From: an uncultured delta proteobacterium
Lineage (GTDB): Bacteria > Desulfobacterota > Desulfobacteria > Desulfobacterales > JAFDCJ01
Length of the DNA stretch: 64,000 nt
Assembly: GCA_963769935.1 (NCBI GenBank)
Contig: CAVYNY010000017.1
Coordinates: 32,001 to 96,000 of the forward strand
Direction: 5' to 3'
Part shown: piece after piece, positions 18,766 to 36,809 of the stretch
Layout of the letters: each line of letters starts with the position of its first letter
Position numbering within the stretch: position 1 is the stretch's first letter
Program-made: the position numbers and the translations under genes
The notes under the pieces: model-generated
The model's database searches: none
Told to the model about the DNA's origin: nothing
Seen by the model: only the letters and a program-made list of their open reading frames with translations

Positions 18766-19167
18766 CTTATCCCGTGCCGCCATCGAAATCCCGGTTCGCT
18801 GAACCAGGACGCCTTACCTTTTCAAAGCGAGAATCATTTCGGAAGGAAATAACAGCTGTTGATGGTATCCGCGCGTTTTTATCTCAAATCCATTAAAACC
18901 GTTTGACCGCCGCTAATGTCCGCTAATTCAATCGTCCGGCTTCTAACACGGCTTTCTGCAATTTTACCCCAAATGTTATAAATAATCCTCTATCGATGGG
19001 AAGAAAAACAATTAACATCCGGCAGATTAGTGCTTGACACAAAATTTAATGGCAGGGTACAGTGCCCTGAAATTTGGGTTATTCTGTCTGTAAGCAAATC
19101 CTTAAGAAATTGCGCTTATGACTCAAGTCTGCTTCAGGACCGGATGTTTAGAAAAGGACCGGAATCA

Positions 19168-20130
19168 ATGACTCGTTTAAGCAGCGTTTTTCTGAAAGAT
19201 GTCGATCGTGTTGAGATAACTACCCTGATCGATAACTATGTCGACCTTATGCTGCAGGATACTCCCATTGTTAAAAGACCTCCGCTTTCAAATGGCAAAG
19301 AACTGCCCCGTGAAACCTTGACGGCGGAACACGGTCTTTCCCTCTTGGTTACGACCTGCCGGGGTTCTGAAAAGCATTCCGTGCTTTTGGATGCCGGGTA
19401 CAATAAAAATAGTGTGCTGCGCAACATCGATCAACTCGGCGTCGATATTCAATCTGTCGAAGCGATCGTTCTCAGCCATGCGCACATGGACCATGCCGGC
19501 GCATTATATTCCATCCTCGATAGAATATCGAAACCGATAGCGCTGGTTGTGCACCCGGATATTTTCTCGTTTCCTCGATTTTTGGAGGATAAAAACGGGA
19601 ACCGCGTATTTTTCCCCCGAACTATCATCAAAGAAGATATCGCAGCGACCGGCTTGACGCTTATCGAGAGCCGAACCCCCACCCTCATTGCCCATGATAC
19701 CATCGCTGTAACGGGCGAAGTGGAGAGGACAACCGATTTCGAGAAGGGGATGCCGAATGCCTATTTACAGGTGGATGGGCACTATCAGGAAGACCGCATT
19801 ATCGATGATCAATCCCTGGTCGTTCAACTGAAAAACAACCGCTTGGTCCTGATCACCGGCTGCTGCCACGCAGGCATTATCAACACCATCCGCTTTGCAC
19901 AGAAGTTGACGGGAATTGAGAACGTTTATGGGGTGCTCGGAGGGCTTCATCTGAGCGGCGCTTTTTTTGAAACGGTTATCGATAGAACCGTTGAAACATT
20001 AAAAGAGATCCATCCGGAAGTTATCGTCCCCATGCACTGCACCGGATGGAACGCCGCCAAAAAACTGGCAGATGCCTTGCCCGATTCATTTATAATAAAC
20101 AGCGTTGGATCAAAGTTTATATTAACCTGA
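19168..20130 (+). CDS. MBL-fold metallohydrolase
   Basis: AEHGLSL, SHAHMDHAG, DDQSL, TGCCHAG, GGLHL, PMHCTG. Confidence 0.9.
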   Translation: MTRLSSVFLKDVDRVEITTLIDNYVDLMLQDTPIVKRPPLSNGKELPRETLTAEHGLSLLVTTCRGSEKHSVLLDAGYNKNSVLRNIDQLGVDIQSVEAIVLSHAHMDHAGALYSILDRISKPIALVVHPDIFSFPRFLEDKNGNRVFFPRTIIKEDIAATGLTLIESRTPTLIAHDTIAVTGEVERTTDFEKGMPNAYLQVDGHYQEDRIIDDQSLVVQLKNNRLVLITGCCHAGIINTIRFAQKLTGIENVYGVLGGLHLSGAFFETVIDRTVETLKEIHPEVIVPMHCTGWNAAKKLADALPDSFIINSVGSKFILT

Positions 20131-20192
20131 AGCCCCCTGAAGGAATGGATCTTGTCAGGAAATAACTGCTTCAGCCAAAGGAGATTATCCCG

Positions 20193-21284
20193 ATGAAAAG
20201 AAAATCAGTCATTATCATTGCCGTTTTGTTGACCTTGGCGCTCGCAGAGCTGCCTGCCGCCCGAAAATGTTTTGCCGCGGCCGAAGTTTTCAATTTTAAG
20301 TTCGCCCATATTTTTCCGCCGACCGCCAAGCACTCGCTAATCTGTGAAGCCTTTATCAAGGATCTTGAAGAGCGGTCCGGCGGACGCATCAAAACCAGCT
20401 ATTTCGGCGGCGGCTCACTGCTCAAACCACCCGGCATGTACAATGGCATAGAAATGGGAATCGCTGATATGGGGTTCGCCCATATCGAGTATACCCCGGG
20501 CCGTTTTCCGGTAACCGAAGCTTGCGACCTGCCGCTGGGCTACCCCAGTGGATGGGTATCGAACATGGTGGTAAACGACTTTTACAACACATTCAAACCA
20601 AAGGAATGGGACAAGGTCAAGGTGCTCTGGATGCATGCCAGTACACCCAACGTCATGATCTCCACCCAGCCGATTCGCACATTAGAGGATTTTAAGGGGT
20701 TGACCATCAGGGGACCGGGCCGGGTCGGAGATACCGTCAAAGCCCTGGGCGCATCCCCTGCCCCGATGCCGATTATGGAAGTTTACGACGGTCTGTCCAA
20801 AGGCGTCATTCAGGGCGTCAACACCCCCTTTGAGACGCTGAAAACCTTCAGGTTCGCCGAGGTCGCGAAATATACGACCTCCAGCTGGCAGGTCGGCAAC
20901 ATATATACCTTTTATGTCATCATGAACAAAAAAAGTTATGAAAGGCTGCCGGCGGATTTAAAGTTGATTCTTGAGGAACTTAGCGGGGAGTATAAAGAGA
21001 AGTTCGCTTTGATGTGGAATTCACTGGATTTTGACGGCAAGGATTTTGCCGCCGCAAAAGGGGTTGAGATCCTGCAGCTGACCCCGGACCAGGTGGATAA
21101 ATGGAAAAAAGCCACGGAGCCGGTGATCGATAACTATGTTAAGGACATGACTTCAAAAGGATATTCCGAAAGTGAAGTCAGAGGCTGGATCGCCTTTCTG
21201 CGGCAGCGGATTGATTTTTGGACCGCTAAGCAGCTTGATTACCGGATTAAATCCGTCACCGGACCGGATGAAATGAGACCTTAG
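20193..21284 (+). CDS. dctP: TRAP transporter substrate-binding protein
   Basis: Signal peptide, SGGRIK, YTPGRFP, DFKGLTIR, EVYDGLSKG. Confidence 0.9.
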   Translation: MKRKSVIIIAVLLTLALAELPAARKCFAAAEVFNFKFAHIFPPTAKHSLICEAFIKDLEERSGGRIKTSYFGGGSLLKPPGMYNGIEMGIADMGFAHIEYTPGRFPVTEACDLPLGYPSGWVSNMVVNDFYNTFKPKEWDKVKVLWMHASTPNVMISTQPIRTLEDFKGLTIRGPGRVGDTVKALGASPAPMPIMEVYDGLSKGVIQGVNTPFETLKTFRFAEVAKYTTSSWQVGNIYTFYVIMNKKSYERLPADLKLILEELSGEYKEKFALMWNSLDFDGKDFAAAKGVEILQLTPDQVDKWKKATEPVIDNYVKDMTSKGYSESEVRGWIAFLRQRIDFWTAKQLDYRIKSVTGPDEMRP

Positions 21285-21516
21285 TGCTTCGATTCGCAAT
21301 TACAGTTACGTATGCTTGGATTGAGAATTATTAATATTGCTCACTCAGCACTAAGTCCTGAGTGAATAAATACGCCACCGTATTTATGAATCGACGGACT
21401 TAGGGTTAGGTCGGTGCCGGTCGCCCGCCCCGGATAGAAAAAAAGCTGGAAGATCATATTGCCCGGCGAAATATTCCGGGGCCGGGCATATCCATTCGAA
21501 AAAGAGGCCGTGACTT

Positions 21517-22017
21517 TTGACGTCCCTGCTTGAAAAATTTGACCGTTTCAACCAAAGGTTCAGCTACCTCGTGGAGTGGATCGGTCTTGGCAGCCTGCTC
21601 CTGATGATGCTTATAACGTGCATGGACGTGATGGGAGCGAAGATATTCCGCCTGCCGGTTCCGGGGGCAATTGATTTCGTCATGTTGTTGCAGTTGTTCT
21701 CAATCTCCTTTGCCGTTGCCGCCAGCCTCATTTTAGGCCGGCATGTTGAGGTGGAATTTTTCGTTCCGCTGCTCCCAAAGGTCGTGCGCGGGATCGTGGA
21801 TTGCATTATCCAGCTGTTGGGCTTGCTGCTGTTTGTATTGATCTGCTGGCGTCTGATGGTTTATGGGCACATGCTTCAGACGTCCCATGAGGTGACGTCT
21901 ACAATTCGGATACCGCTCTATCCCTTTGCCTATGCAATGGTCTTGGCCTTCATCCCGGTCTGTCTGGTATACCTGCAGCGGTTTATCGTATCACTCATGA
22001 GGTTAATAAAAAATTGA
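21517..22017 (+). CDS. dctQ: TRAP transporter small permease
   Basis: Four TM helices, HVEVEF, lies between dctP and dctM. Confidence 0.88.
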   Translation: MTSLLEKFDRFNQRFSYLVEWIGLGSLLLMMLITCMDVMGAKIFRLPVPGAIDFVMLLQLFSISFAVAASLILGRHVEVEFFVPLLPKVVRGIVDCIIQLLGLLLFVLICWRLMVYGHMLQTSHEVTSTIRIPLYPFAYAMVLAFIPVCLVYLQRFIVSLMRLIKN

Positions 22018-23318
22018 GTCCTGTGGTCACCGGTATCGTCGGCATCGCGCTGCTTCTTCTGCTTTTTCTCTTGAGGATGCCCGTCGCTTTTTCAATGACG
22101 CTTGTCGGCGTCGCCGGCTTCAGCTATTTGACAGGTCTGGAACCGGGCCTGGGAGTTCTGAGGCAGGATATCTTTGAGACATTTTCCTCCTACCCGCTGT
22201 CCGTGATCCCCATGTTCATTCTCATGGGCTCCTTTGCTTTTGCCTCGGGGATCAGCCGCAGGCTATATGACACTGCGTATACATGGGTTGGACACTTGCG
22301 CGGGGGATTGACGATTGCCACCGTTCTGGCATGTTCGGGATTCGCCGCCATATGCGGTTCAACTGCTGCAACGGCGGCCACCATGGGAAAGATTGCGCTG
22401 CCGGAGATGAAAAAGTATAAATACAGCGATATGCTGGCTACCGGAACCATTGCCGCAGCGGGCACGCTGGGCATTCTTATTCCGCCCAGTACCATATTGA
22501 TTGTCTACGGAATATTAACGGAGGAATCGATTGGAAAGCTTTTTGTGGCCGGACTGCTGCCGGGTGTGATTTTGAGCCTTTTGTTCGTCGCTACCGTAGC
22601 CATAATATGCACGCGCAACCCGCAACTGGGGCCTTCCGGCGCCTCTACTACCTGGCGTGAAAAGGTAAAAGCGGTCAAGGGGATCATTGAGGCCTTTATT
22701 CTCTTTGTGCTGACGATCGGCGGATTGTTTCTAGGCTGGTTCAGCCCCACTCAGGCCGGAGCGATTGGTGCCGGCGGTGCCCTGTTGATCGGGTTGATCC
22801 GGCGGCAGCTCAGCTGGCAAAGCTTTTTTGAAGCCGGCAAAGACGGCCTGCGGACTTCGTGTATGGTGCTGTTCATCATCACCGGCGCCACGGTATTCGG
22901 CCATTTCATGGCTGTCACGATGATTCCGTTCATGCTCGCCGATTGGGTCGGCAGCCTTCCGATACCGAGCTTCGCCATAATGGCGGTAATTGTCTTTATA
23001 TACTTTGTCGGCGGGTTCTTCATGGATTCCATGGCCCTTGTGGTGGTCACCATCCCGATTTTCTTCCCGATGGTGATGAAGCTCGGGTTCGATCCCATCT
23101 GGTTCGGGGTTATTATCGTGCTGGTAGCGGAGATGGGCGTCATTACACCCCCGGTGGGCGTCAATGTGTTTGTAATCAAGGGAATAGCTCCGGAAATACC
23201 GCTCGAAGTCATATTCAAAGGCATCTTGCCGTTTCTGCTGGCTCTCATACTGTTTACGATTGTCCTGATGATATTTCCCCAAATTGCAACATTTTTACCC
23301 AGCCTTATCACCTATTAG
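22014..23318 (+). CDS. dctM: TRAP transporter large permease
   Basis: IPMFILMG, GTLGILIPPS, ITPPVGVNVF. Confidence 0.95.
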   Translation: MSPVVTGIVGIALLLLLFLLRMPVAFSMTLVGVAGFSYLTGLEPGLGVLRQDIFETFSSYPLSVIPMFILMGSFAFASGISRRLYDTAYTWVGHLRGGLTIATVLACSGFAAICGSTAATAATMGKIALPEMKKYKYSDMLATGTIAAAGTLGILIPPSTILIVYGILTEESIGKLFVAGLLPGVILSLLFVATVAIICTRNPQLGPSGASTTWREKVKAVKGIIEAFILFVLTIGGLFLGWFSPTQAGAIGAGGALLIGLIRRQLSWQSFFEAGKDGLRTSCMVLFIITGATVFGHFMAVTMIPFMLADWVGSLPIPSFAIMAVIVFIYFVGGFFMDSMALVVVTIPIFFPMVMKLGFDPIWFGVIIVLVAEMGVITPPVGVNVFVIKGIAPEIPLEVIFKGILPFLLALILFTIVLMIFPQIATFLPSLITY

Positions 23319-24160: not shown

Positions 24161-24397
24161 TTAAAGAAGATCACGCAAAAGGGCGGCGCAGGTATCCGAC
24201 ATTTCGATCCCGGTTTCCTCGACCGCAATTGCTTCCCGCTCACAGATTTCAACGCAGCTAAGACAGCCCACACAATCTTTCGCATTTACGGGGGTCGACT
24301 TACCATTTCGCATTTCAAAAACTTCCGATGTGCAGGCTTCCAGACATTCTTCACAGCCGTTACATTTTTCCTGGTTCAGTGTTATTTTAAATCCCAT
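24161..24397 (-). CDS. 2x[4Fe-4S] ferredoxin
   Basis: CNGCEECLEAC and CVGCLSCVEIC; AGGAG RBS upstream of ATG 24397. Confidence 0.9.
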   Translation of the reverse strand: MGFKITLNQEKCNGCEECLEACTSEVFEMRNGKSTPVNAKDCVGCLSCVEICEREAIAVEETGIEMSDTCAALLRDLL

Positions 24398-24688
24398 CTT
24401 GTGATAGATCCTCCTTTGTACCGCTTTGTGTCCGTGGCTGGACTTATACAAAGTTGAATGATGCCACTAGATTCGGAATTTTTCACAAAAATGTCAACAG
24501 AAAAATTGTATCCAAAATATAAAGCAATCCAGGAAAATTTCAAAATTATTGGTTGACCCTTATCGGGCTATATTTTGGCAGAAAATTAATTAATATATTG
24601 AATTATATACATATTTAAAAAATATATTTTTGTTGACATTTCATAGGTGATCGATTAAAAATACTAATATCTCACAAAATTAAAGCCA

Positions 24689-24700
24689 TTTGTATACAAA
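24689..24700. promoter_or_regulatory. GntR/FadR-type operator palindrome
   Basis: Perfect TTTGTATACAAA at the gntR start; related TTGTATCCAA at 24506-24515 and TTATACAA near 24444; TTGACA on both strands in the divergent intergenic region. Confidence 0.65.
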
Positions 24701-25388
24701 ATTGGAAAAATCTGCCACTCAATTAAAGATCTCAAAAAAGTCCGTCCCGGTGCGGGAAAGGGCTTATAACGATTTGAAATCCGACCTGCTTTCCGGCCGT
24801 TTTACCCCGGGAGAAAGACTGACCGAAGAGCATTTGGCAAAAAGCTTGGGCGTCAGCCGAACACCGGTCAGAGAAGCCCTTCATAAGCTGGAATCCGAAG
24901 GTTTGGTCAAGCCCCTGGAAAGCAGGGGTTTTTACGTTGCACGGGATTCGCGCGAAGAGCTGGAGGATCTTTTCGATATCAGGGCCGCCTTGGAAGGCTA
25001 TGCGATAAGATTAATCTGCGCCCGAATATCCGCGGAAACAATCAAACAGCTCAACGAATTCATCAAAAAAGCAGAAGATGCACTTGCCCGCAAGCAACTC
25101 GATGAGATCTTTGAATACAACACCCAATTTCATGATGTTCTTCACGGCGTGATTGCCCGCAAAACCCGATTCCACACCCTGATTGCCGATACCCGCAAAT
25201 ATGTGCTGCGCTACCGCAAGGACAGCCTTCATTATTTCGACGGTGCGCGGCGAACCATCGACGGGCACAAAAAAATACTGATGGCCATTAGTCTGAAAGA
25301 CCCGGAGCTATGTGAGCGTGTGATGCGGCAACATATCCGGGAGGCCAAAGAAGAGGCATTGCATAAAATTTCTGAGAAAAAACAATGA
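24690..25388 (+). CDS. GntR-family (FCD domain) transcriptional regulator
   Basis: PGERLTEEHLAKSLGVSRTPVREAL wHTH; FCD motifs FHDVL and GHKKI. Confidence 0.93.
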   Translation: MYTKLEKSATQLKISKKSVPVRERAYNDLKSDLLSGRFTPGERLTEEHLAKSLGVSRTPVREALHKLESEGLVKPLESRGFYVARDSREELEDLFDIRAALEGYAIRLICARISAETIKQLNEFIKKAEDALARKQLDEIFEYNTQFHDVLHGVIARKTRFHTLIADTRKYVLRYRKDSLHYFDGARRTIDGHKKILMAISLKDPELCERVMRQHIREAKEEALHKISEKKQ

Positions 25389-25441
25389 TCCGCTGAAATA
25401 AACAGTGTTTGTTTCCGGATATTCCGAATGAGGAGGTTCTG

Positions 25442-26197
25442 ATGAAAGCAGATAAAGACAAATGTATCGCCTGCAAACGATGTTTTGCATATTGCCCCAT
25501 GGGCCGGATACAGACTTTTCATCGGCATGAGAAAATTCCCGGCCGCATTTACATTGAAATAGACCAGGACGCCTGTACCGACTGCGGCATGTGCGTGCGG
25601 GCCAACATCTGTCCGGTCAATGCCCTTTATCAGCAAGTCGAGGAATGGCCGCGGGAAATCAGAGGTATTTTGAGCAATCCGCTCATCGAGTTCAAGGGCT
25701 CGCAGGTGCCGGGACGGGGAACTGAAGAGATGAAAACCAACGACGTTAAAGGCTCCTTTCTGCCCGGTGAGGTTGGGGTCGGAGTTGAGCTGGGCCGTCC
25801 CGGTGTAGGGGCTTATTTCAGGGACGTCGAAATCATCGCGATGGCCTTGATGGGCGCGAACATCGGCTATGAACTGGCCGCGGAAAATCCGGTTACCCAT
25901 TTCATGTCGGACAAAAAAACGGGCAAACTGCGAGACGATGTGCTCGGTGAAAAGGCAACATCCGCAATTATTGAGGGCAAGTGCAAGTTGGAAAAACTGC
26001 CCGAGGCGTTAAAGGCTTTGCAGGAGGCTGCTGAAAAGGTCGATACGGTGTTTACCGTGGAAGTGATCACAAAGGTTACGCCGGAAGGAGAGGTGCCCAC
26101 CAAAGCCGTCCTGGAAAAATTAGGCTTCTGGTACTCCATCAACAGTAAGAACAACCTCGGGCTGGGACTGCCGGCCTTTGATTTTTACGGATCATAA
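25442..26197 (+). CDS. 4Fe-4S dicluster protein with uncharacterised C-terminal domain
   Basis: CIACKRCFAYCP and CTDCGMCVRANICP; C-domain with GRGTEEMKTNDV and ELGRPGVG; GAGGAGG RBS. Confidence 0.88.
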   Translation: MKADKDKCIACKRCFAYCPMGRIQTFHRHEKIPGRIYIEIDQDACTDCGMCVRANICPVNALYQQVEEWPREIRGILSNPLIEFKGSQVPGRGTEEMKTNDVKGSFLPGEVGVGVELGRPGVGAYFRDVEIIAMALMGANIGYELAAENPVTHFMSDKKTGKLRDDVLGEKATSAIIEGKCKLEKLPEALKALQEAAEKVDTVFTVEVITKVTPEGEVPTKAVLEKLGFWYSINSKNNLGLGLPAFDFYGS

Positions 26198-26209
26198 AGG
26201 AGACGATTC

Positions 26210-26857
26210 ATGACACACAGCTTGCACCGCAGGGGGGACTACGAGAGCCTCAAGGAAGATTTTGTGGTACTGGGCTGCCCGGCGACGGGCGTCAACAAGG
26301 TCGGGTCCGCCCCCAAGACCCAGAATTTTTTGAGCATCTGTTACAAGCACGGTCCGGTCAACCTGGGCGATATGAAAACCGGCAATATTTACAACACCAC
26401 CATGGATGATATCCTGGCAAGTGTAACGGATGGTACCATCGTTCAGTGTACTTTCGACAACCGGGATAAAATTGTGGATTTGATGAAAGAACTCAAGGAG
26501 AGAAGACCCGGAATATCCGTCATCATTTCCGGCGTGACCGATGTCGTGCAGCAGTGTATGTTCGAAGCCGGACTCGGTCCGATCCATTCACTCGAGTATT
26601 CATTGGGGACCTGGGGCAAAACCGAAAGATTGCCCGGGTATGCGGTATTGAAGCTGGTTACGATGTGCGGGCATGCCATGATTGCCTCCGACCTGGTGGG
26701 TAAAATGGTGCGGGACGTCAAACGCGGGCGCCGGACCATCAGATCCTGTGTGGTGGAATTGGCCCGGTGCTGTACCTGCGGCAACTTCAATTTGACACGC
26801 GGAGAAAAGATATTCCAGGAAGTCCTTTCAACCTATACGGTTCATAGTCTGTACTGA
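26210..26857 (+). CDS. Hypothetical Cys/His-rich (probable metal-binding) protein
   Basis: AAGGAG RBS; THSLHR, TMCGH and CCTCGNFN motifs; tightly spaced in the operon. Confidence 0.82.
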   Translation: MTHSLHRRGDYESLKEDFVVLGCPATGVNKVGSAPKTQNFLSICYKHGPVNLGDMKTGNIYNTTMDDILASVTDGTIVQCTFDNRDKIVDLMKELKERRPGISVIISGVTDVVQQCMFEAGLGPIHSLEYSLGTWGKTERLPGYAVLKLVTMCGHAMIASDLVGKMVRDVKRGRRTIRSCVVELARCCTCGNFNLTRGEKIFQEVLSTYTVHSLY

Positions 26858-26890
26858 AACCGGAAACGTTACAAGTATAAGGAGACAAAG

Positions 26891-28204
26891 ATGCGATATG
26901 TACTGGTGGGCGGGAGCGCTGCAGCCGTAAGTGCGCTGGAGGCGATTCGATCCGTTGACAAGTCGTCGCCAATTGATTTGTTCAGCGATGAAAAAGCGCC
27001 GCTTTTTTCAAGAGTGCTTCTTCCCTACTATGTGGCCGAGGAGCTCTCGAAACCGCTGTTAAATTTCAGATCGGCTGATTTTTTCCAGGAAAACAATGTT
27101 ACGGCCCATATCGGCGTCAGGGTTCAAGCGATTGATCCGGCTGCCAAAACGGTGACCGCCGATGACGGCCACACCTATGCCTATGACAAGTTGCTGCTTG
27201 CCACCGGCGGCAATGCGATCGTCCCAAAATTACCGGGCGTTGACAAGGAAGGCATCTCGCCGCTCAAGACCATGCAGGATGCGGAAAGAATATATAATTT
27301 TGACGGCGGCCGGGCGGTGGTCATCGGTGCCGGCAGCATCGGCGTCGAGTCCTGTATCAGCCTGATGCGAAGGGGTGTCAAGGTCACATTGCTCGAACAG
27401 TTGGGCCAGGTGCTGCCGACGGTTTTTGATGACGAGGCGGCCGGCATCATCCGGGAAGTCATCGAGCAGATGGGAATCGAGGTGATCACCGGCGAGCGCG
27501 CGATTGAATTTACCGGCAACGGCCGGGTGCAGAGTGTTGTGACGAGCACCGGCGAGATTGAGTGCGACAATGTCATTTTGTCCGTTGGGGTCAGGCCGGC
27601 GGTGGAGCTGGCCGAGCAGGCCGGGATCGAGGTCGGCATGATGGGCGGAATCACAACCGATGCCGCTATGATGACGAGTCGGCAGGATATATATGCCGCC
27701 GGGGATGTATGTGAGACCTTTGATATTGCCCGCAACCAGCCTTTTATCAATGCCATCTGGCCGATGGCCGTGGAACAGGGCCGGATTGCCGGACTGAATA
27801 TGGCCGGGCAAAGCAGACAATACGGCGGGTCCGTCCGAATGAACTCCATCGGTAATTTTATCGGTATTCCGGCCATGTCCATGGGTGTTACCCGCACCGA
27901 GGAATGCTCATATGTCGATGAAGATTGTCACTTCCAGGAGATCAAAAAACGGACCCGGAACACTTACAAGAAGATCATTTTAAAAAACGGATGCATTGTC
28001 GGGGCGATCTTCATCGGGGTGGGTCAAACCCAGCGCTGCGGCCTTATATCGATTCTTCTCAGGCGGCAAATTGACGTTTCCGACTATATTCAAACATTGA
28101 TGAGCAACAATTTGAGCTTCATGGATATCCTGCCGTTGTTGCGGCGCTACGGCGACAAGTTCACCGAACCCGAATACAAAGAGCTGATGGATACGGGGCT
28201 TTAG
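26891..28204 (+). CDS. FAD-dependent pyridine nucleotide oxidoreductase (FNOR/rubredoxin-reductase-like)
   Basis: LVGGSAAA, YDKLLLATG, VIGAGSIG, IYAAGD, AVEQGRIAGLNM. Confidence 0.92.
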   Translation: MRYVLVGGSAAAVSALEAIRSVDKSSPIDLFSDEKAPLFSRVLLPYYVAEELSKPLLNFRSADFFQENNVTAHIGVRVQAIDPAAKTVTADDGHTYAYDKLLLATGGNAIVPKLPGVDKEGISPLKTMQDAERIYNFDGGRAVVIGAGSIGVESCISLMRRGVKVTLLEQLGQVLPTVFDDEAAGIIREVIEQMGIEVITGERAIEFTGNGRVQSVVTSTGEIECDNVILSVGVRPAVELAEQAGIEVGMMGGITTDAAMMTSRQDIYAAGDVCETFDIARNQPFINAIWPMAVEQGRIAGLNMAGQSRQYGGSVRMNSIGNFIGIPAMSMGVTRTEECSYVDEDCHFQEIKKRTRNTYKKIILKNGCIVGAIFIGVGQTQRCGLISILLRRQIDVSDYIQTLMSNNLSFMDILPLLRRYGDKFTEPEYKELMDTGL

Positions 28205-28425
28205 GTTTTGAAAACTTCACCGTTCAATGGTTCAGAGGTCCAGGGTTAACTTCGAATCCGAACCGATAGTTGCATCAGTTTTGAAAGAAAATTGTTCGCG
28301 GGTAGAACACTCTTAGAAGATTAAAGCATAATAATTGGCGTGAACGCCAATCCACCAGGTAATTAAAGGATACCCTGAACGGGGAACTTTGAACCTGGGA
28401 ACCCTTTGTTGACGAGGAGGACAAA

Positions 28426-28875
28426 TTGCAGGTTATAAAAGTAGATCCCAAGAAATGTACCGGTTGCCACCAGTGCGAGCTTTGGTGCGGAACGGAAATC
28501 GCATCTCTCGCCAAGGAATTATCCGGCGCAATCAATGAAGAACCCCAGCCGGTGCCCCGGGTGTATGTGGAAGGTAAAAAGCTGGCCCTGCAGTGCCGGC
28601 ATTGTGTTGAGGCGCCGTGCCTGGATGCCTGCCCCAACGGAACCATGCGGCGGGACCCGGAAACCGGACTGGTGTATGTAAATGAGCCGACCTGTATTGC
28701 ATGCTGGATGTGTGTGATGGTATGTCCCTTCGGCATCATCAATCCGTCGCCGACCCACCGGGTGGCAATTAAATGCGACCGCTGCCGTAACATGGGCTAC
28801 CCCATATGTGCGGAGGTATGTCCGACTCAGGCCATATCCGTTGAACCCCGGCAGGACTATCGTAAAGTCTTTTAA
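28426..28875 (+). CDS. cooF: CooF-like 4x[4Fe-4S] electron-transfer subunit
   Basis: CTGCHQCELWC, CRHCVEAPCLDACP, CIACWMCVMVCPFG, KCDRC...ICAEVCPT; GAGGAGG RBS. Confidence 0.85.
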   Translation: MQVIKVDPKKCTGCHQCELWCGTEIASLAKELSGAINEEPQPVPRVYVEGKKLALQCRHCVEAPCLDACPNGTMRRDPETGLVYVNEPTCIACWMCVMVCPFGIINPSPTHRVAIKCDRCRNMGYPICAEVCPTQAISVEPRQDYRKVF

Positions 28876-28916
28876 AAGGAAGATTGTGCAACTTATGGCA
28901 AAGTTAATAAAAATTA

Positions 28917-28998
28917 ATCACGAAAACACGAAATTCGGAAAGCACGAAATTAGATAATTATTTTTTTTCGTGTTTTCGCCCTTTCGTGCTTTCGTGAT
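28917..28998. repeat. Palindromic intergenic element built from CACGAAA units
   Basis: CACGAAAACACGAAATTCGGAAAGCACGAAA ... TTTCGTGTTTTCGCCCTTTCGTGCTTTCGTG. Confidence 0.7.
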
Positions 28999-29055
28999 AA
29001 AAAATTTCTGTTGAGTTCCGGGTGCTTAGGTTTAGGCATAAGAAAGGAGAAAAAG

Positions 29056-30754
29056 ATGGAGTTTATCCAGAGAAAGACCGCTGATCGTGCCGTTAACCAT
29101 TTCCTGCTGAAAGCAGCAGATCAGGAGATAAACGTTACATGGGACCGGTTTGAAGGTCAGCTTCCAGAATGCGGATTTTGTGAATCAGGCTTGAGCTGTC
29201 GAGACTGCCTGCAGGGTCCCTGCATCAGCCATCCGTTCAGAGGTCAGAGCAAGCTGGGTGTATGCGGTAAAGACAAGGACGTACTGACGGCTCAATCTTT
29301 GTTGCGGCTGGTGCTGAAGGGGACCATGTCCTATCTCGATCAGCTGAATGATTTTGTCAATGAGTTTCAGGCCGGTGCCGTCGAACCGGCCAACAAGAAA
29401 CAGGCCGGGCAGACCGTGAAAGCGATTCTGGATCTGCTGCATACGGGCAGCTCCGAGGTTGTCGGCGAGTTTCCGGCAGCTCTGGTGGAAGTCTGGAAAA
29501 CGACAGGCGTCCTCCCCCAAGGAATTGCCAGCGATGTGTTCAAGGCTTCCCAGCGGCTGGAAGGCGGTTTCAGCGATATGGAGGAAACGCTGTTGTGGTC
29601 CTTTAAAACCGCGCTGCTTGGATGTATGAGCGACAGACTCCAGCATAAATTAAAAGCAGCGGTTTTCGGCCGCACCGCTCCGGCAGAACTTGAAGTCAAT
29701 CTGGGTGTTCTTAAAAGCGATGGCCCCACCATTCTTATCTATGGTCCGGTTTCGCCGCTGCTCAAACAAAAGATTGCCGAAACGGCGGAGGAGAAAAACG
29801 TCAATGTGATGGGCGTCTGTACAGATCCGCTGCTGCCCTCCTATCGTTTTTTCCCGGTTACGACCTATGTTTCCCAAGAGGTTCCCCTGATGACCGGTGC
29901 CGTGGATCTGATTGTCGTCGGGAGCCAATTTGTCAACCCGTCTTTGGCTGCCGTCGCCATCGATTGGAAGGTAGCCGTGGTGCCGACCGATGGGTTAAAT
30001 CAAAATCCGGATACGGCTGCATTTGCTCAACAGATCGTAGCGCAGGCCGCGCAGGCTTTTGAAATGCGAAAGAACATTGCCAGAGACATTCCCATGGTCA
30101 AAGAATCGGCCGTCATGGGCTATTCTGCCGCCGAAATCGACATCAATAAGATTGTGCAGGCCCTGGAAAGCGGCAGCATCAAGGGCATCGCAATCCTGGC
30201 CGGCAGTAATAACGTCAAATACACCCAGGACGAGGAGCTGGTTACGATCGCCAAGCAGTTGCTGGCTCACGATATTTTGTGTGTTTCGGATGGGGAAGCC
30301 AGTGTCAGCCTGGCCAAATACCGGCTGTTGGATCCGGCCGGCCGGGACAAGGATTGCGGCCCTGGTGTCAAAGCCCTGCTGGCGTCGCTACGGGGAGAAT
30401 GTACCGTCGGTAATCGACTGGAGCCTGACGGATTTTCTGTTGACTTTAGGCGGTGCCGGCGAAAAGGCGCTTTCGGATTACCCGATCTGTGCCTATTTTC
30501 CGGAAGCCAACCGTACGGCCGAAGTAACCAAAGCGATGTGGACGGTGGCCATGGGCGTTTCCACTTATTTCTGGCCCTGTCTGCCGGTGACCGGCAGTGT
30601 CAGAACCCAGAAGGCCTTGAGCGATTTATGCCGGCAAAAATTCGGCTCAAAGCTGCATGTCGTAACCCAGAAAATCGATGCCCGATCCAAAGCCGGCTTG
30701 TTTATAAAAGAGATTGAAGCGCCGGCCCCGATGTCGGGAAAGTCGTGGGAATAA
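29056..30754 (+). CDS. Ni-CODH (CooS)-like protein lacking most C-cluster ligands; one apparent frameshift near 30390
   Basis: WDRFEGQLPECGFC...CRDCLQGPC...GVCG, EVNLGVL, TGAVDL, GIAILAGSNN, LPVTGS; C-terminus continues in ORF 30059..30754. Confidence 0.85.
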
Positions 30755-30759
30755 TCTCT

Positions 30760-31162
30760 TGGTGTCAGGTGTCAGTGTTCAGGTGTCAGCCAAACGAAGC
30801 TCTATAAATTTTTGGCGGCATTAAAAGAGACTGTGGAAGCGGTTTTTAACTGCGATCTGTCATTTTGTGATCTGACTTCGGCATAAAGTCTTCTGGAGAC
30901 TGACACCTCGTGTGAAACTACATTTAGTTTCTTCCACGATCAGACTGGACGCTCGCGGCCAGAGGCGGCGCTTATATGAAACTTCATTAAATTCGATGCC
31001 ATTTTTATGAAGTGTCTCACCGCTGAGAGCGCAGAGAGTGCGGAGATTAATTAAACTTTTCTTTCTCGGCGTTTTCGGCGGTGAACTATTATGTTTCTTT
31101 TTCGATCAGACTGGACGCTCGCGGCCAGAGGCGGTGCTGACACCCGAAACCTGAAACCTTCA
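30760..31162. repeat. Nested intergenic repeat cluster
   Basis: GGTGTCA tandem units pairing with CTGACACC/CTGAAACC; exact 32-nt duplicate CGATCAGACTGGACGCTCGCGGCCAGAGGCGG at 30937-30968 and 31103-31134; CACCGC...GCGGTG hairpin at 31017-31085. Confidence 0.75.
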
Positions 31163-31188: not shown

Positions 31189-32373
31189 ATGCCTTACCAA
31201 AGCGGTCGTCATTTCCTGCAGATCCCCGGCCCCACCAACGTTCCCGATCGGATCCTGCGGGCCATGGGCAAACCGACCATCGACCACCGCGGTCCGGAAT
31301 TCGCTCAGCTGGCGTTGGATCTGTCGGCGGGTCTGCAGCGGATCTTTCAAACCACCGGTCCGGTAATTGTGTATCCATCCTCGGGAACCGGCGCCTGGGA
31401 AGCGGCCATCGTCAATACGCTTTCGTCCGGCGACAAGGTCCTCATGTTTGAAACCGGCCATTTCGCTACGCTCTGGCGCAACATGGCTGCAAGCTTCGGG
31501 CTGGAGGTTGATTTTGTGCCGACCAACTGGAGACACGGGGTGGACCCTGCGATAGTCGAGCAAAAACTGGTCGAAGACCGGAATCATGAGATAAAATCGG
31601 TGATGGTGGTTCACAACGAAACTTCCACCGGAGTTACCAGCCGGATTCCGCTTATTCGAAAGGCCATCGACCGCGCCCAACATCCGGCCCTGTTGATGGT
31701 CGACACCATTTCATCGCTGGCCTCGATTGACTACCGGCATGAAGCGTGGGGGGTGGATGTCACCGTGGGCTGTTCCCAAAAGGGTCTTATGCTGCCTCCG
31801 GGGCTGGGTTTGAATGCCGTCAGCCAAAAGGCCCTGGCCGCGGGGCAATCGGCGAAGCTGCCGAAGTCTTTCTGGGATTGGAATGCCATGCTGGGGGCCA
31901 ACCAACAGGGCTTCTTCCCCTATACCCCGGCCACCAATTTGCTTTACGGCCTGCGGGAAGCCATTAGCATGCTGGAAGAAGAGGGGCTGTCGAACGTTTT
32001 TGCCCGCCATGACCGGCATGCCGAAGCCACCCGTCGGGCCGTGCGTGCCTGGGGACTCGAGGTTTTGTGCGAAACCCCCGAGGAATACAGCAGCTCGCTG
32101 ACCGCCGTCATGATGCCCGCTGGACATGACACCGCCGTCCTGCTGGATCTGGTTTTAAAGAAATTCGATTTGTCGCTCGGCATCGGACTGGGCAAGCTCA
32201 GGGGTAAAATTTTCCGTATCGGCCATCTGGGCTATTTCAACGACCTGATGCTGGCCGGAACCCTGGCCGGGCTGGAGATGGGACTCTCTCTGGCCGGGAT
32301 TCCCTTTTCCAAGGGAGGGGTGACGGCGGCGCTTGAATATCTGGAAGGCACCCACAGGCAAAATACCGGGTAA
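31189..32373 (+). CDS. Class V PLP aminotransferase (serine/alanine-glyoxylate aminotransferase-like)
   Basis: GRHFLQIPGPTNVP, VHNETSTGV, VDTISSL, CSQKGLMLPPG, FRIGHLG. Confidence 0.92.
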   Translation: MPYQSGRHFLQIPGPTNVPDRILRAMGKPTIDHRGPEFAQLALDLSAGLQRIFQTTGPVIVYPSSGTGAWEAAIVNTLSSGDKVLMFETGHFATLWRNMAASFGLEVDFVPTNWRHGVDPAIVEQKLVEDRNHEIKSVMVVHNETSTGVTSRIPLIRKAIDRAQHPALLMVDTISSLASIDYRHEAWGVDVTVGCSQKGLMLPPGLGLNAVSQKALAAGQSAKLPKSFWDWNAMLGANQQGFFPYTPATNLLYGLREAISMLEEEGLSNVFARHDRHAEATRRAVRAWGLEVLCETPEEYSSSLTAVMMPAGHDTAVLLDLVLKKFDLSLGIGLGKLRGKIFRIGHLGYFNDLMLAGTLAGLEMGLSLAGIPFSKGGVTAALEYLEGTHRQNTG

Positions 32374-32502: not shown

Positions 32503-33489
32503 ATGAAGCGTTCAATTTTGTTGGTCACCGTCATGTCTTTAGCCCTCATTTTATCCGGTGCTTTCAGTGCCCAGGCGGTTGAGCTTAAATTCGGGCACGT
32601 GGGAGCCCCGGGCTCCCTGTTTTCAATATGTGTGGATGAATTTGCCAAACGCGTCAACGCCCAGATGGGACCCGATGTAACCGTGGTCGCCTTTGGTTCG
32701 AGCCAGCTCGGCAAGGACCAGGAGCTTTTGAAAAAGCTCAGACTCGGCACCGTCGATTTTGCATTGCCCTCGACAGTCATGTCCTCAGTGGTCGACGTCT
32801 TCGGCCTTTTCGAAATGCCCTACCTGGTAAAAAACCGTTTACATATGCGGGCGATCCGGGATCGTCTCTTCTGGAGCAAACTGGAGCCGGCGGTCGAAAA
32901 GCAGGGCTATAAAATCATCGCCGTCTGGGAAAACGGCTTTCGCAACATTACCAACAATGTCAGACCCATCAACGTTCCGGCCGACCTGGCGGGAATCAAG
33001 CTGCGCACCCCCAAAGGGGAATGGCGCTTGAAGATGTTCAAAAGCTACGGCGCCAATCCCACGCCCATGGCGCTGTCGGAGGTCTTTGTCGCTCTTCAAA
33101 CCGGCGTCATCGACGGGCAGGAAAACCCCCTGGCCCAGATCTACAGCCAGAAATTCCAGGAAGTCCAGAAATACCTGTCCATGACGGGCCACGTATATAC
33201 TCCGGCCTACGTGACGGTCGGCGCCCAGCGCTGGGCCAAACTGCCGGCTGATCAGCGCGCCAAACTCCAAGCCATCGCTCAGGGCATGCAGGAATTCGTC
33301 TACCTGAAGGCCGAACAGCTCGACAATGAGCTTCTGGAAAAAATGAAAGGCTCGGTTGAGATCAACACCGCCGATAAAGACGCCTTTATCCAATCCAGCA
33401 GCGACATCTATGCCGAATTCGGCAAAACCGTTCCGGGAGGTGCCGAACTCGTGCAACAAGCCGTGGAACTGGGAAACATCTACAAGTAA
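32503..33489 (+). CDS. dctP: TRAP transporter substrate-binding protein
   Basis: Signal peptide, WENGFRNIT, LQTGVIDGQENP, EVQKYLSMTGH. Confidence 0.93.
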   Translation: MKRSILLVTVMSLALILSGAFSAQAVELKFGHVGAPGSLFSICVDEFAKRVNAQMGPDVTVVAFGSSQLGKDQELLKKLRLGTVDFALPSTVMSSVVDVFGLFEMPYLVKNRLHMRAIRDRLFWSKLEPAVEKQGYKIIAVWENGFRNITNNVRPINVPADLAGIKLRTPKGEWRLKMFKSYGANPTPMALSEVFVALQTGVIDGQENPLAQIYSQKFQEVQKYLSMTGHVYTPAYVTVGAQRWAKLPADQRAKLQAIAQGMQEFVYLKAEQLDNELLEKMKGSVEINTADKDAFIQSSSDIYAEFGKTVPGGAELVQQAVELGNIYK

Positions 33490-33500
33490 AACAACGCTGG

Positions 33501-33533
33501 CCACATCCGGGGTTATGCCCGGATGTGGTTTAT
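33501..33533 (+). terminator. Rho-independent terminator or stability hairpin after dctP
   Basis: CCACATCCGG-N8-CCGGATGTGG followed by TTTATT. Confidence 0.7.
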
Positions 33534-33752
33534 TCAATTGAAAACTGAAGATTGTAAATTGAATATTTATGGATGTCGCTGCGCTCCGTCTTTTATAAAA
33601 TAGATCCGCCTTTAATTGGGCCATATGGCATATGGTACAAGTGCTGATAGCGACATATGGTATTTTTAAAATGACACATGGCGCTATCGAAGGCGGACCT
33701 TAAATATTCAATTTTCAATCGAAAATATTCAATCAATGGGGGGGTGTTTTTG

Positions 33753-34304
33753 TTGGCACAATTTCGCAAAGGCTTTGAACGTCTGATGGAAGCCATCGTC
33801 ATTTTGCTCATGGTGACCCTGACCGTCATTGTTCTGGTTGCCGTAATTTACCGCAAAGCCGGCGCCTCGCTGAGCTGGTATGACGAGATTGCATCCGTTT
33901 TACTCGCCTGGCTTACTTATTACGGTGCCGCCCTGGCCGCCATTCACCGGGAACATATCGGATTTGCCGGCCTCATCAAAGCTCTGAAGCCCGCTGTACG
34001 CATCCCATTAATTGTCATCAGCGAAGTCTGCATTCTCGGTTTTTTTGCGCTGCTGGCCTGGGTCGGATTCCAGGTCTTGGTCATCCTTAAAGGCGATTCC
34101 CTGATCAGTCTACCGGAAGTCCCCACCCGCTTGACCCAATCCGTTATTCCCATCGGAGCAATCCTTTTTATTATCGCCGAGGCACTCGGCATTCCGGAGC
34201 TGCTGAAAAAAGCGGCCAAACCCGACGGATTCGCCAATGTCGACGTACCGACTGAGATGGAAACCAACTCAGTGACGGCCGCTACGGAGGGACCTCGCCC
34301 ATGA
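33753..34304 (+). CDS. dctQ: TRAP transporter small permease
   Basis: WYDEIAS, HIGF, four TM helices. Confidence 0.88.
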   Translation: MAQFRKGFERLMEAIVILLMVTLTVIVLVAVIYRKAGASLSWYDEIASVLLAWLTYYGAALAAIHREHIGFAGLIKALKPAVRIPLIVISEVCILGFFALLAWVGFQVLVILKGDSLISLPEVPTRLTQSVIPIGAILFIIAEALGIPELLKKAAKPDGFANVDVPTEMETNSVTAATEGPRP

Positions 34305-35584
34305 CGCTTTTTTTGATGCTTTTAGGCTTGTTTGCGCTGATTGCCATTAATGTCCCGATCGCCATCGCCCTGGCCGTCGTCGCGGTGGTGGCCATGATCG
34401 CCACCCAGGGCGTCGGCATCTTGCCCAACGTCGCCCTGGTCATGTTTGACGGCGCCACCAATTTCCCATTGCTGGCGATCCCCTTGTTCATTTTCGCCGG
34501 CGCCATCATGAACACCTCCGGAATTTCAAAGCGGCTGATCGCCTTTGCCTCGGCATTGATCGGATTTGTCAAAGGCGGCCTGGCCATGGTCACTATCGCC
34601 GCCTCGATGTTCTTCGCCGAGATGTCCGGCTCCGCGGTGGCCGATGTGGCCGCCCTGGGATCGATTCTCATTCCGGCCATGAAACGCAAGGGGTATCCAA
34701 GAGGCTTTGCGGCGGCCGTGACCTCCTCTTCGGCCACTCTGGCCGTCATCATCCCGCCGTCGATACCCATGATTCTCTATGCGGTCATGTCGGACAGCTC
34801 GGTGGTCCAGCTGTTTGTGGCCGGAATCATCCCCGGTATTCTGGGCGGCGTCATTATGATGGTTGTCTGTTACTGGTTTGCGGTTCGCTACAGCTACCCG
34901 GTGGAGGAGGTCTTCAAGTTCAAGCGGGTGTGGACTACCTTCAGGGCCGCCTCCTGGGCCTTTTTGCTGCCTGTGATCATTTTAGGAGGGATCTTCGGCG
35001 GCCTGGTGACGGCTACCGAGGGGGCCGGCCTGGCGGTGGCTGCGGCACTTTTTATCGGCGCCGTCATCTATCGTGAGCTCAACTGGCCGCATCTGCGGCA
35101 GGCCATCATCGAAGGCGGAATCTCCACGGCGGTCGTCATGCTGTTGGTGGCCGCCTCGGCTTTGGTGGGAAATTATCTCACGGAGCTTCAGGTGCCCCAG
35201 CAGCTGGCGGCGGCCATTACGCAGTGGACCCAAAACCGCTATCTGGTCCTGGCGCTGTTGAATGTTTTTTTTCTGGTAGTCGGGCTGTTTCTGCATTCCG
35301 CGGCTGCCATCATCCTGGTGGTACCGATCGTCATGCCGCTGGTCCACGCCATCGGCATCGATCCGGTACATTTCGGGCTTGTCGTCACCCTCAACCTGGG
35401 CATCGGCCAGCAAACCCCGCCGGTAGCCAGCGTGCTGATAACCGCCTGTTCGGTGGCCAAGGCGGATATCTGGGAAGTCAGCCGTATAAACGTCTTTTTT
35501 GTCGCCGTCATAGTGGCGGTGCTCCTGCTGGTCACCTATGTGCCGGCGATACCGATGTCGCTGGTGAGGCTGTTTTACGGATAA
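34301..35584 (+). CDS. dctM: TRAP transporter large permease
   Basis: LLAIPLFIFAG, IIPPSIPMI, GQQTPPV. Confidence 0.95.
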   Translation: MTLFLMLLGLFALIAINVPIAIALAVVAVVAMIATQGVGILPNVALVMFDGATNFPLLAIPLFIFAGAIMNTSGISKRLIAFASALIGFVKGGLAMVTIAASMFFAEMSGSAVADVAALGSILIPAMKRKGYPRGFAAAVTSSSATLAVIIPPSIPMILYAVMSDSSVVQLFVAGIIPGILGGVIMMVVCYWFAVRYSYPVEEVFKFKRVWTTFRAASWAFLLPVIILGGIFGGLVTATEGAGLAVAAALFIGAVIYRELNWPHLRQAIIEGGISTAVVMLLVAASALVGNYLTELQVPQQLAAAITQWTQNRYLVLALLNVFFLVVGLFLHSAAAIILVVPIVMPLVHAIGIDPVHFGLVVTLNLGIGQQTPPVASVLITACSVAKADIWEVSRINVFFVAVIVAVLLLVTYVPAIPMSLVRLFYG

Positions 35585-35647: not shown

Positions 35648-36809
35648 ATGATGCGATTTGAATTTGCCACCGCCACGCGGATAATTTTTGGAATGGGAAG
35701 CATAAAGGAAGCCGGCCGCCATGCCGCCCCAATGGGCCGCCATGCGTTTGTTGTCACCGGCCGGAGCGTTGAGCGGGCCGCACCCCTGATAGACGGTCTA
35801 AAAGAAAATGCGGTAAGCTGTTCACAGTTCAGCATTGCCGCAGAGCCGACAACCGACCTGGCCCTGGCGGCGGTGCGGGAGGCGCGTCGGCAACATTGCG
35901 ATGTGGTCATCGGAATCGGCGGGGGCAGCGTGTTGGACACCGGCAAGGTGGTGGCTGCACTGTTGACCAACAGCGGCGATTTAATGGATTATCTCGAAGT
36001 CATTGGGTCCGGCCGACCGCTGCAGCATGCGTCGGCCCCCTATATCGCCATTCCCACTACGGCCGGCACCGGTGCCGAGGTGACGCGCAATGCGGTTCTG
36101 GATTCACCCGCGCATTGTGTCAAGGTCAGCATGCGAAGCCCTTTTATGCTGCCGCAGCTGGCGCTTGTGGATCCGGAGTTGACCTTCTCGGTGCCGCCCG
36201 CCATAACGGCCAGCACAGGCCTGGATGCGTTCACCCAGCTGCTGGAGGCTTTCGTTTGCCGTCAGCCCAATCCTCTCACAGACGCTGTCTGCCGCGAAGG
36301 GCTGCAGCGGGCGGCACGGTCATTGACAAAAGCTTATCTTGCCGGCCATAACGCCGATGCGCGCTGCGATATGAGTCTGGCAAGTCTCTTTGGCGGGCTG
36401 GCGCTGGCCAATGCAAAATTGGGTGCGGTGCATGGGTTTGCCGGGCCCTTGGGGGGCATGTACCCTGCGGCGCATGGTGCGCTGTGCGCCGGCCTGCTGC
36501 CGCATGTCATGGATATAAATGTGAGGGCGCTGCGCGCCAGAGCGCCGGAATCCCAGGCGTTGGATCGCTATGATGAGATCGCGCGGATTGGTGACCGCTG
36601 CGCCCGACCGCACGCGCGGCGGATGGGATCGCCTGGGTGCGGGATTTATGCCGGCAGCTTAAGGTGCCGCCGCTGGCCGACCATGGAATAAAGATCAGGA
36701 TTTTGCAACCATCGTTGACAAAGCCCGCCGGGCCAGCAGCATGAAAGGAAATCCGATTGAACTGACCGCCGATGAGTTATTGGAGATTCTTCAGCGTGCG
36801 ATTTGCTAA
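35648..36809 (+). CDS. Iron-containing alcohol dehydrogenase (apparent frameshifts near 36590-36695)
   Basis: GGGSVLDTGK, IPTTAGTGAEVT, LGAVHG, HGALCA; typical C-terminus ASSMKGNPIELT...AIC* lies in a shifted frame ending at 36809. Confidence 0.88.

Follow-up and report, generated by a model that had tools for sequence, protein, structure and literature searches.

A 64,000-nucleotide stretch of DNA from an uncultured delta proteobacterium of the Desulfobacterales (GTDB lineage JAFDCJ01; assembly GCA_963769935.1, contig CAVYNY010000017.1, positions 32,001 to 96,000), hereafter the window, carries an operon in which two uncharacterised proteins, here called subunit A (Fes) and subunit B (Ths), are encoded together with an FAD-dependent NAD(P)H oxidoreductase (FNOR), a CooF-type polyferredoxin and a homologue of the carbon monoxide dehydrogenase (CODH) CooS that lacks the ligands of the C-cluster (Table 1). 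Every gene claimed in a preliminary description of this DNA, including a GntR regulator and a divergent ferredoxin, is present. That description rightly counted six co-oriented genes and placed them behind gntR, which is instead one of the six. Similarly, tripartite ATP-independent periplasmic (TRAP) importers lie on both sides of the operon as it had said, although only the downstream importer belongs to the conserved unit, which extends past cooS to a class-V aminotransferase gene and this importer; the upstream TRAP genes and the adjoining metallo-beta-lactamase (MBL)-fold gene had no close match in nine congener regions, six of which reach about 4 kb or further upstream. At distant loci a tripartite tricarboxylate transporter (TTT; TctABC) usually replaces the downstream TRAP importer. 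The best NCBIfam match of FNOR was PadH, with a score under the PadH cut-off.

Table 1. Features of the operon and its surroundings (positions are those of the window)
Feature	Position	Strand	Remarks
MBL-fold gene and upstream TRAP importer	19144-23318		
Ferredoxin 2x[4Fe-4S], 78 aa, divergent	24161..24397	-	Pfam Fer4_7/Fer4; upstream in many close loci
Operator box 1, TTGTATCCAA	24506..24515		just downstream of minus-strand promoter-like site (24543-24516)
Operator box 2, palindrome TTTGTATACAAA	24689..24700		downstream of plus-strand promoter-like site (24633-24662)
GntR/FCD regulator, start codon uncertain	24690..25388	+	Pfam GntR and FCD
Subunit A (Fes), 251 aa, carries GRGTEEMKTNDV	25442..26197	+	N-terminal 2x[4Fe-4S] and ACT-like domain
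Subunit B (Ths), 215 aa, THSLHR protein	26210..26857	+	ferredoxin-like alpha/beta and helical domain, predicted metal site
FNOR, FAD-dependent NAD(P)H oxidoreductase, 437 aa	26891..28204	+	Pfam Pyr_redox_2
CooF-type polyferredoxin, 149 aa	28426..28875	+	Pfam Fer4_11
Putative clade-G CooS homologue without C-cluster ligands, Prismane/CODH family	29056..30754	+	B-cluster and CxxC D-site kept
Class-V aminotransferase, serine/aspartate:glyoxylate type by sequence, linked, likely co-regulated	31189..32373	+	
Downstream TRAP importer DctP-Q-M	32503..35584	+	conserved in congeners

The operon is a real, conserved redox system. The order Fes–Ths–FNOR–CooF–CooS was complete in 39 of the 52 loci with a B protein of at least 65% identity (close loci), and 12 more stop at contig edges; one close locus, L067, had no FNOR within 3.3 kb downstream. 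The preliminary description had proposed that a ligand-less CooS accompanies both uncharacterised proteins, and this gene-neighbourhood survey found them syntenic, FNOR, CooF and CooS following downstream in those 39 loci. The aminotransferase gene was present in 18 of the 25 close loci with room for it. B was found in 9 of 22 congeners and in 37 of 301 genomes sampled from the host phylum, own genome included, and its family comprises 580 clusters at 50% identity. Among the matches listed, 610 of 619 pattern-matched GTDB stretches held B, the named close relatives were mostly Desulfobacterota metagenome-assembled genomes, more distant relatives were labelled Bacillota, Chloroflexota, Acidobacteriota and Pseudomonadota, and no named match was a cultured isolate carrying the pair. 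Synteny is maintained over several phyla.

The control region is conserved as well. Two operator boxes, both fitting TTG(T/G)AT(A/C)CAA and spaced by 184 bp (24506, 24690), lie between the divergent ferredoxin gene and gntR, and the second overlaps a possible TTG start of gntR. The operator previously noted at gntR is therefore there, though it is one of two, and the further claim that the ferredoxin shares this control region is borne out by the paired boxes, which recur in 33 of 44 close loci and in 1 of 5307 tiles of the own genome; TTTGTATACAAA itself occurs twice in that 8 Mb genome. The boxes stay in place where gntR has moved downstream (L032, L040, L046, L049), five loci without any box have a different regulator (23-26% identity), and in L031 the box pair precedes a separately transcribed aminotransferase gene. 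For these reasons the ferredoxin, the operon and the aminotransferase likely form one regulon, in which GntR would likely repress both divergent promoters until bound by the imported acid or a product. When the own genome was scanned for the operator, no further clear regulon member appeared, and counts of promoter-like and terminator-like sites were not clearly above those of shuffles (14 vs 10.5+/-3.1; 22 vs 15.6+/-3.5).

De-duplication of B genes by identical sequence left 155 distinct genes. For 149 of these, a co-oriented A gene is found no more than about 1 kb away, and four of the six B genes without a neighbouring A sit at contig edges. Two B genes without an adjacent A are those at L080:6980 and L083:10001, the former followed by genes resembling succinate/malate-CoA ligase and CitE/malyl-CoA lyase. 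The two subunits are fused in both orders (A-B in P0245; B-A in P0250, P0267 and P0268). No CooS was linked to 96 of the 155 B genes, some of which are cut by contig ends; the A/B pair is an independent module, separable from CooS. Its redox wiring seems to take three routes, namely the CooS/CooF/FNOR module, a B-CooF fusion (P0136) and an A-flavoprotein fusion (L173:3992-6112). In the last, directly upstream of a B gene, the first ferredoxin motif of a 707-aa A is separated from the C-terminal domain by an inserted GltD-type NAD(P)H flavoprotein, a fusion that lends substance to the earlier idea that NAD(P)H chemistry is tied to the uncharacterised proteins.

Genomes may hold many copies of the pair, with up to 10 B paralogues each (10 and 7 B matches in G340 and G341). 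A second A/B paralogue, about 40% identical and with N for H at position 3, stands beside the main operon in L031, L034, L038, L055, L064-L066, L117 and L119, often with a fused GlcD/F-type FAD dehydrogenase, and in L119 an operator-like box lies ahead of it; this paralogue may carry out a second step in that pathway. At L163-L173 the neighbours include aldehyde ferredoxin oxidoreductases (AORs), Ldh_2-type dehydrogenases and aldolases, to which L169 adds BhcC/BhcD-like and LeuCD/LeuB-like genes.

Both subunits have strongly conserved residues. In A, the eight ferredoxin cysteines are present in 145-149 of 151 proteins, and the ACT-like domain bears the motifs GRGTEEMKTND, ELGRPG and KxNxGLG, of which GRG, K98, GRP and K236 are found in 150-151 of 151. 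B bears C153-G-H155, C188-x-C190, H6, H126, R7 and N194, and C153, G154, H155, C188 and R7 occur in all 149 B proteins compared. AlphaFold models of the two subunits were confident (predicted local distance difference test, pLDDT, 95.3 and 90.0). That the two uncharacterised proteins interact, as the preliminary description had supposed, is likewise predicted by modelling, which covered this pair: using alignments made for this analysis, the A/B complex scored 0.93, a value that 116 of 157 solved pairs and 2 of 215 mismatched pairs attain, and the best of three controls scored 0.01. Contacts agreed between runs to at least 93%, with a partner pLDDT of at least 89. The predicted interface (B residues 2-7, 126, 153-162 and 187-190; A residues 15-22, 48-54, 92-103, 114-123 and 229-244) holds the invariant motifs of both proteins, that is, C-G-H, C-x-C, His and Arg of B, and the ferredoxin cysteines, GRGT.E.K.N, E.GRP and K.N.G.G of A. 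The models thus predict that A and B form one heterodimer, and they suggest a three-Cys/His metal site in B, within electron-transfer reach of the A clusters, together with an anion-binding pocket. We infer that this interface site is catalytic.

Family and structure searches gave little beyond the ferredoxin domain of A. Matches of A were limited to that domain and to generic ACT-like folds; its C-terminal domain is ACT-like (Z 7.6, root-mean-square deviation (rmsd) 2.6, 78 residues), a common fold arrangement that shows no function. B matched no Pfam or NCBIfam family, had no match in the PDB by sequence and just weak unrelated ones by profile, no Foldseek match at E<=0.001, a best VIA Z of 4.5 with none of Z >=5 among 48161 chains, and hypothetical clusters only in the Atlas. 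Compared by profile, A and B showed no similarity (probability 0.5%), and no thiamine pyrophosphate (TPP), pterin or flavin domain was detected in either by family and fold searches. Blank searches of this kind do not establish a new fold.

We reasoned about the substrate from the neighbour genes, counted within 7 kb of the 155 B genes and in 548 windows of the own genome. TTT or TRAP genes were near 68 B genes (19 of the 548 windows), and these carboxylate-type importers agree with the imported organic substrate of the preliminary description; the PDB matches of DctP and TctC were too distant to name a ligand. Enzyme types of C2 and hydroxy-acid metabolism were near 56 B genes (23 windows) and an aminotransferase near 28 (3 windows). 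The aminotransferase, found beside 22 of 46 B genes with a ligand-less CooS and 1 of 13 with a four-Cys CooS, also stands directly next to the pair in unrelated contexts (L079, L119, L174). Its best PDB match is the serine-glyoxylate aminotransferase 6pk1 (368 bits), and its best-matching model is that of BhcA (NF045640; 462.9 bits, under the cut-off of 650); by sequence, it is classed as a glyoxylate-type class V enzyme. Other neighbours resemble Gcl, GlcD/E/F, Frc/Oxc, tartronate-semialdehyde reductase, glycerate kinase, BhcC/BhcD and AORs, and also LarA racemases (LarAH6-like), MalK/DcuS sensors, oxaloacetate decarboxylase and PdxA. Glyoxylate fits as the commonest shared node, with malate, tartrate and other acids fitting some paralogues.

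The CooS of the window has lost its active site. Compared with ChCODH-II and the three canonical CODHs of its own genome, it is without H93, H261, C333, C446 and C476, so the preliminary description was right to regard the CODH site as dead. It has G/P, T, F, S and E at H261, C295, C333, C446 and C476, Tyr in place of the catalytic H93, and one cysteine (294) of the 294/295 pair; C526 and K563 are absent in its intact close relatives, which have Ala at 563. The B-cluster cysteines C48/51/56/70 and the CxxC D-site are kept. Against TIGR01702 it scored 188.5 bits and did not reach the cut-off of 478, a score lowered by the break in the frameshifted open reading frame (ORF). A protein of this sequence would be unable to build the Ni-Fe-S C-cluster, so CO at this CooS would not be the electron source, and because of the lost ligands CO-dependent NAD(P)+ reduction by the window module is very unlikely.

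The break in cooS lies at about 30391, where this assembly carries one extra base. This base is absent in contigs of two of four runs (X2 and X6; X1 and X3 have no depth there) and close relatives encode an unbroken protein of 565 aa, so the frameshift is probably an assembly error. The idea that cooS is a decaying pseudogene in a cluster assembled by chance draws on this frameshift and on the broken genes of relatives L026 and L042; it is largely refuted and hardly tenable, since the run contigs lack the base, full-length genes dominate among relatives and synteny spans several phyla. Moreover, the ratio of nonsynonymous to synonymous substitution rates (dN/dS) of ligand-less cooS is 0.09-0.12 (six pairs from four close loci), compared with 0.02-0.13 for the other four genes, and cooS is under purifying selection.

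Loss of the C-cluster ligands extends to most CooS proteins linked to the pair. All 56 keep the B-cluster, and C333/446/476/526 are absent in 42 (one of them truncated), complete in 13 and reduced to one in 1. Besides the group of the window there is a second ligand-less group of nine with 480-505 aa (L121, L128, L130, L136, L139-L143), which has the B-cluster only, and a third was seen at L113/L116/L118. Short CooS genes of 436-532 aa that resemble mini-CooS adjoin the pair in other phyla. One could suppose that, in line with proposals for CODH-V and clade B, the altered CooS pocket has itself become the new site of catalysis and that A/B is an accessory, a maturase or a ligand sensor. Repurposed CODH scaffolds are documented in the available text of the sources (PMC13592312; CODH-V as cited in PMC13240472), and the ACT-like domain of A would suit a sensor. 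Set against this, the former ligand positions vary freely (F/W/S/G/Y at 333; S/T/G/Y at 446) with invariant motifs in A/B, and A/B often occurs without CooS, which makes a catalytic pocket decidedly improbable.

The 13 four-Cys forms bear on another possibility, in which A/B frees CO by cleaving glyoxylate or oxalate (oxidative decarbonylation). The ancestral clade-G CooS would have served to oxidise this CO, and derived operons would send it to canonical CODH and acetyl-CoA synthase, the dead CooS staying as an adaptor. This would account for a CODH being the partner at all. Eight of the 13 also keep H261 and K563, and three CODHs of the own genome, two of which are tandem neighbours, retain every ligand (G000:C10:56319-60208, C16:129587-131101). 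We nevertheless consider it unlikely, given the many B genes without a linked CooS, the replacement of the acid-base H93 in 12 of the 13 four-Cys forms and the lack of a precedent in our literature search.

By signature, length and gene context, the window CooS matches clade G, and these were also the terms of its comparison with the clade G references OGP75751 and mini-CooS (WP_007288589). The G-1 signature, as given in the available text of Inoue et al. 2019 (PMC6344411), comprises a type III D-site, H, T, C, C, C, C, Tyr for the acid-base His, and Lys in a protein of 561 aa (OGP75751), and the portion of the supplement available gives its context as an unassigned gene, FNOR, CooF, CooS, TctC, x and TctA. 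The window CooS shares with G-1 the CxxC D-site, Tyr for the acid-base His, Thr at 295 and the FNOR/CooF/Tct context. However, H261, C333, C446, C476, C526 and K563 are absent in its group, so it appears to be a derived ligand-less variant of clade G and not G-1 proper. The exact G-1 signature, including all six of these residues, is carried by the CooS of L053/L055/L064/L065, whose gene order is that of the single published G-1 representative as far as the source gives it. These four group with the close relatives of the window with support of 100 in both trees that we built, which omit the window CooS piece and L018 (the second also L026 and L059). The FastTree tree requires that the ligand state changed at least twice. 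The two trees differ in where they put the G-1-like four-Cys group, which is either sister to the ligand-less group of the window or nested within it, and both carry long-branch warnings. Mini-CooS was described from Thermosinus carboxydivorans (Techtmann et al. 2012, PMC3328121) and placed in clade G (PMC8776680), so far as these sources are available. In the literature available in part, G-1 is treated as a single CODH linked to FNOR and CooF, without discussion of the A/B pair.

Our preferred reading, which we rate as somewhat short of probable, is that Fes and Ths form a heterodimeric iron-sulfur oxidoreductase that oxidises a small imported acid and passes the electrons through ligand-less CooS, CooF and FNOR to give NAD(P)H. 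The imported compound would be a small 2-oxo or 2-hydroxy acid, with glyoxylate or something closely related as the likeliest candidate; it would be converted to or from glyoxylate by the dehydrogenase and the aminotransferase, and oxidised at the A/B interface site. Electrons would then run from the A clusters to the B and D clusters of CooS, which would serve as a wire or scaffold, and on through CooF and FNOR to NAD(P)+; the divergent ferredoxin could be an alternative acceptor, and the A-GltD-type flavoprotein of L173 a second wiring of the same kind. We infer the glyoxylate-type substrate and the oxidative direction, the latter because, without a C-cluster, the module has no donor near -500 mV and NADH, at -320 mV, cannot reduce a carboxylate. 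The reverse course, from NAD(P)H through FNOR, CooF and CooS to A/B with reduction of a higher-potential oxo, imino or enoate group, appears quite unlikely: sequence is silent on direction, and FNOR-type and GltD-type enzymes are reversible, yet the importers, the repressor-like operator layout and the neighbouring dehydrogenases and AORs fit catabolism, and easy reductions would need no multi-cluster chain.

Several points weigh against an oxidoreductase of glyoxylate-type acids wired through CooS. Small ACT/ferredoxin-like folds, such as both subunits have, often play a regulatory part. The neighbour queries were picked after viewing the loci, the scan took in a selection of the neighbours, and the counts are inflated by kin that are not independent; most neighbour matches are under curated cut-offs, and the Gcl query picks up further TPP enzymes as well. 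By sequence the neighbours would also fit malate, tartrate, lactate or tricarboxylates, and up to 10 paralogues per genome imply several substrates. Finally, a pure wire has no need of the four C-cluster cysteines kept in the 13 linked CooS proteins, and the ligand-less group of nine is also without the D-site, which weakens a route through B and D.

Parts of the system resemble others already described. A CO-oxidising CooS-CooF-FNOR module is known from the available text of PMC6344411 and PMC8776680; it has the same three gene types, co-oriented, and the route proposed here likewise ends at NAD(P)+, with two extra conserved subunits. As given in the portions of the sources available, clade B RfCODH (PMC13592312) and CODH-V (clade D) are likewise CODH scaffolds turned from CO and linked to substrate importers, and they keep most cluster ligands and the metal site, in contrast to the window CooS, which keeps nearly none and where catalysis would lie on another protein. 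To TPP-dependent oxalate oxidoreductase, tungsten AOR and PadEFGHI, the likeness would be acid or aldehyde oxidation to iron-sulfur carriers and a PadH-like NAD+ reductase; A/B matches them in the ferredoxin domain only. Anaerobic routes for glyoxylate and glycolate, by way of malyl-CoA, carboligase/glycerate, malate synthase and hydroxyaspartate, are described in the available text of PMC8092247 and PMC6313629. In their accessible portions, CODH surveys filter out ligand-less or clade G sequences (PMC13240472, PMC13056359, bioRxiv 2023.01.17.524042), and a literature search with most subscription journals outside its reach returned no description of the A/B pair or of ligand-less clade G. The CooS-CooF-FNOR part looks to be a new ligand-less variant of clade G, and the A/B core looks new.

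The assembly looks indel-prone. Elsewhere in the window an MMPL-like gene (13808-16231) is spread over three overlapping frames, the ORF of an iron-containing alcohol dehydrogenase (35648-36691) appears to leave frame at its end, and run contigs differ by single bases at 33494 and 35597. The intergenic stretches 30760-31140 and 33570-33735 have very high contig depth and many joints and are probably dispersed repeats. RNA-library contigs from one study span A-B and cooF-cooS; we rejected them as evidence of expression or co-transcription, since contigs cannot show transcripts, and a control stretch was likewise covered in 28-29 of 30 bins.

More speculatively, and with a lower likelihood than we give to the route itself, A/B may found a metalloenzyme family that is widespread among anaerobes, has a new cofactor site of Cys3/His type and needs neither TPP, CoA nor pterin to oxidise or decarbonylate glyoxylate-type acids; it may repeatedly have made a CODH into an empty electron conduit, and clade G CODHs may be its subunits rather than free-standing CO oxidisers. 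The analysis defines a large, unnamed two-subunit family, and in its operons a CODH fold is kept under selection without its active site. The finding is also a warning that cooS matches in sediment genomes overcount CO oxidation. Clade G CODHs, which context surveys leave out in the portions available, gain a testable role, and should the substrate prove to be glyoxylate or a related acid, the pair would add a direct oxidative route to anaerobic C2 metabolism.

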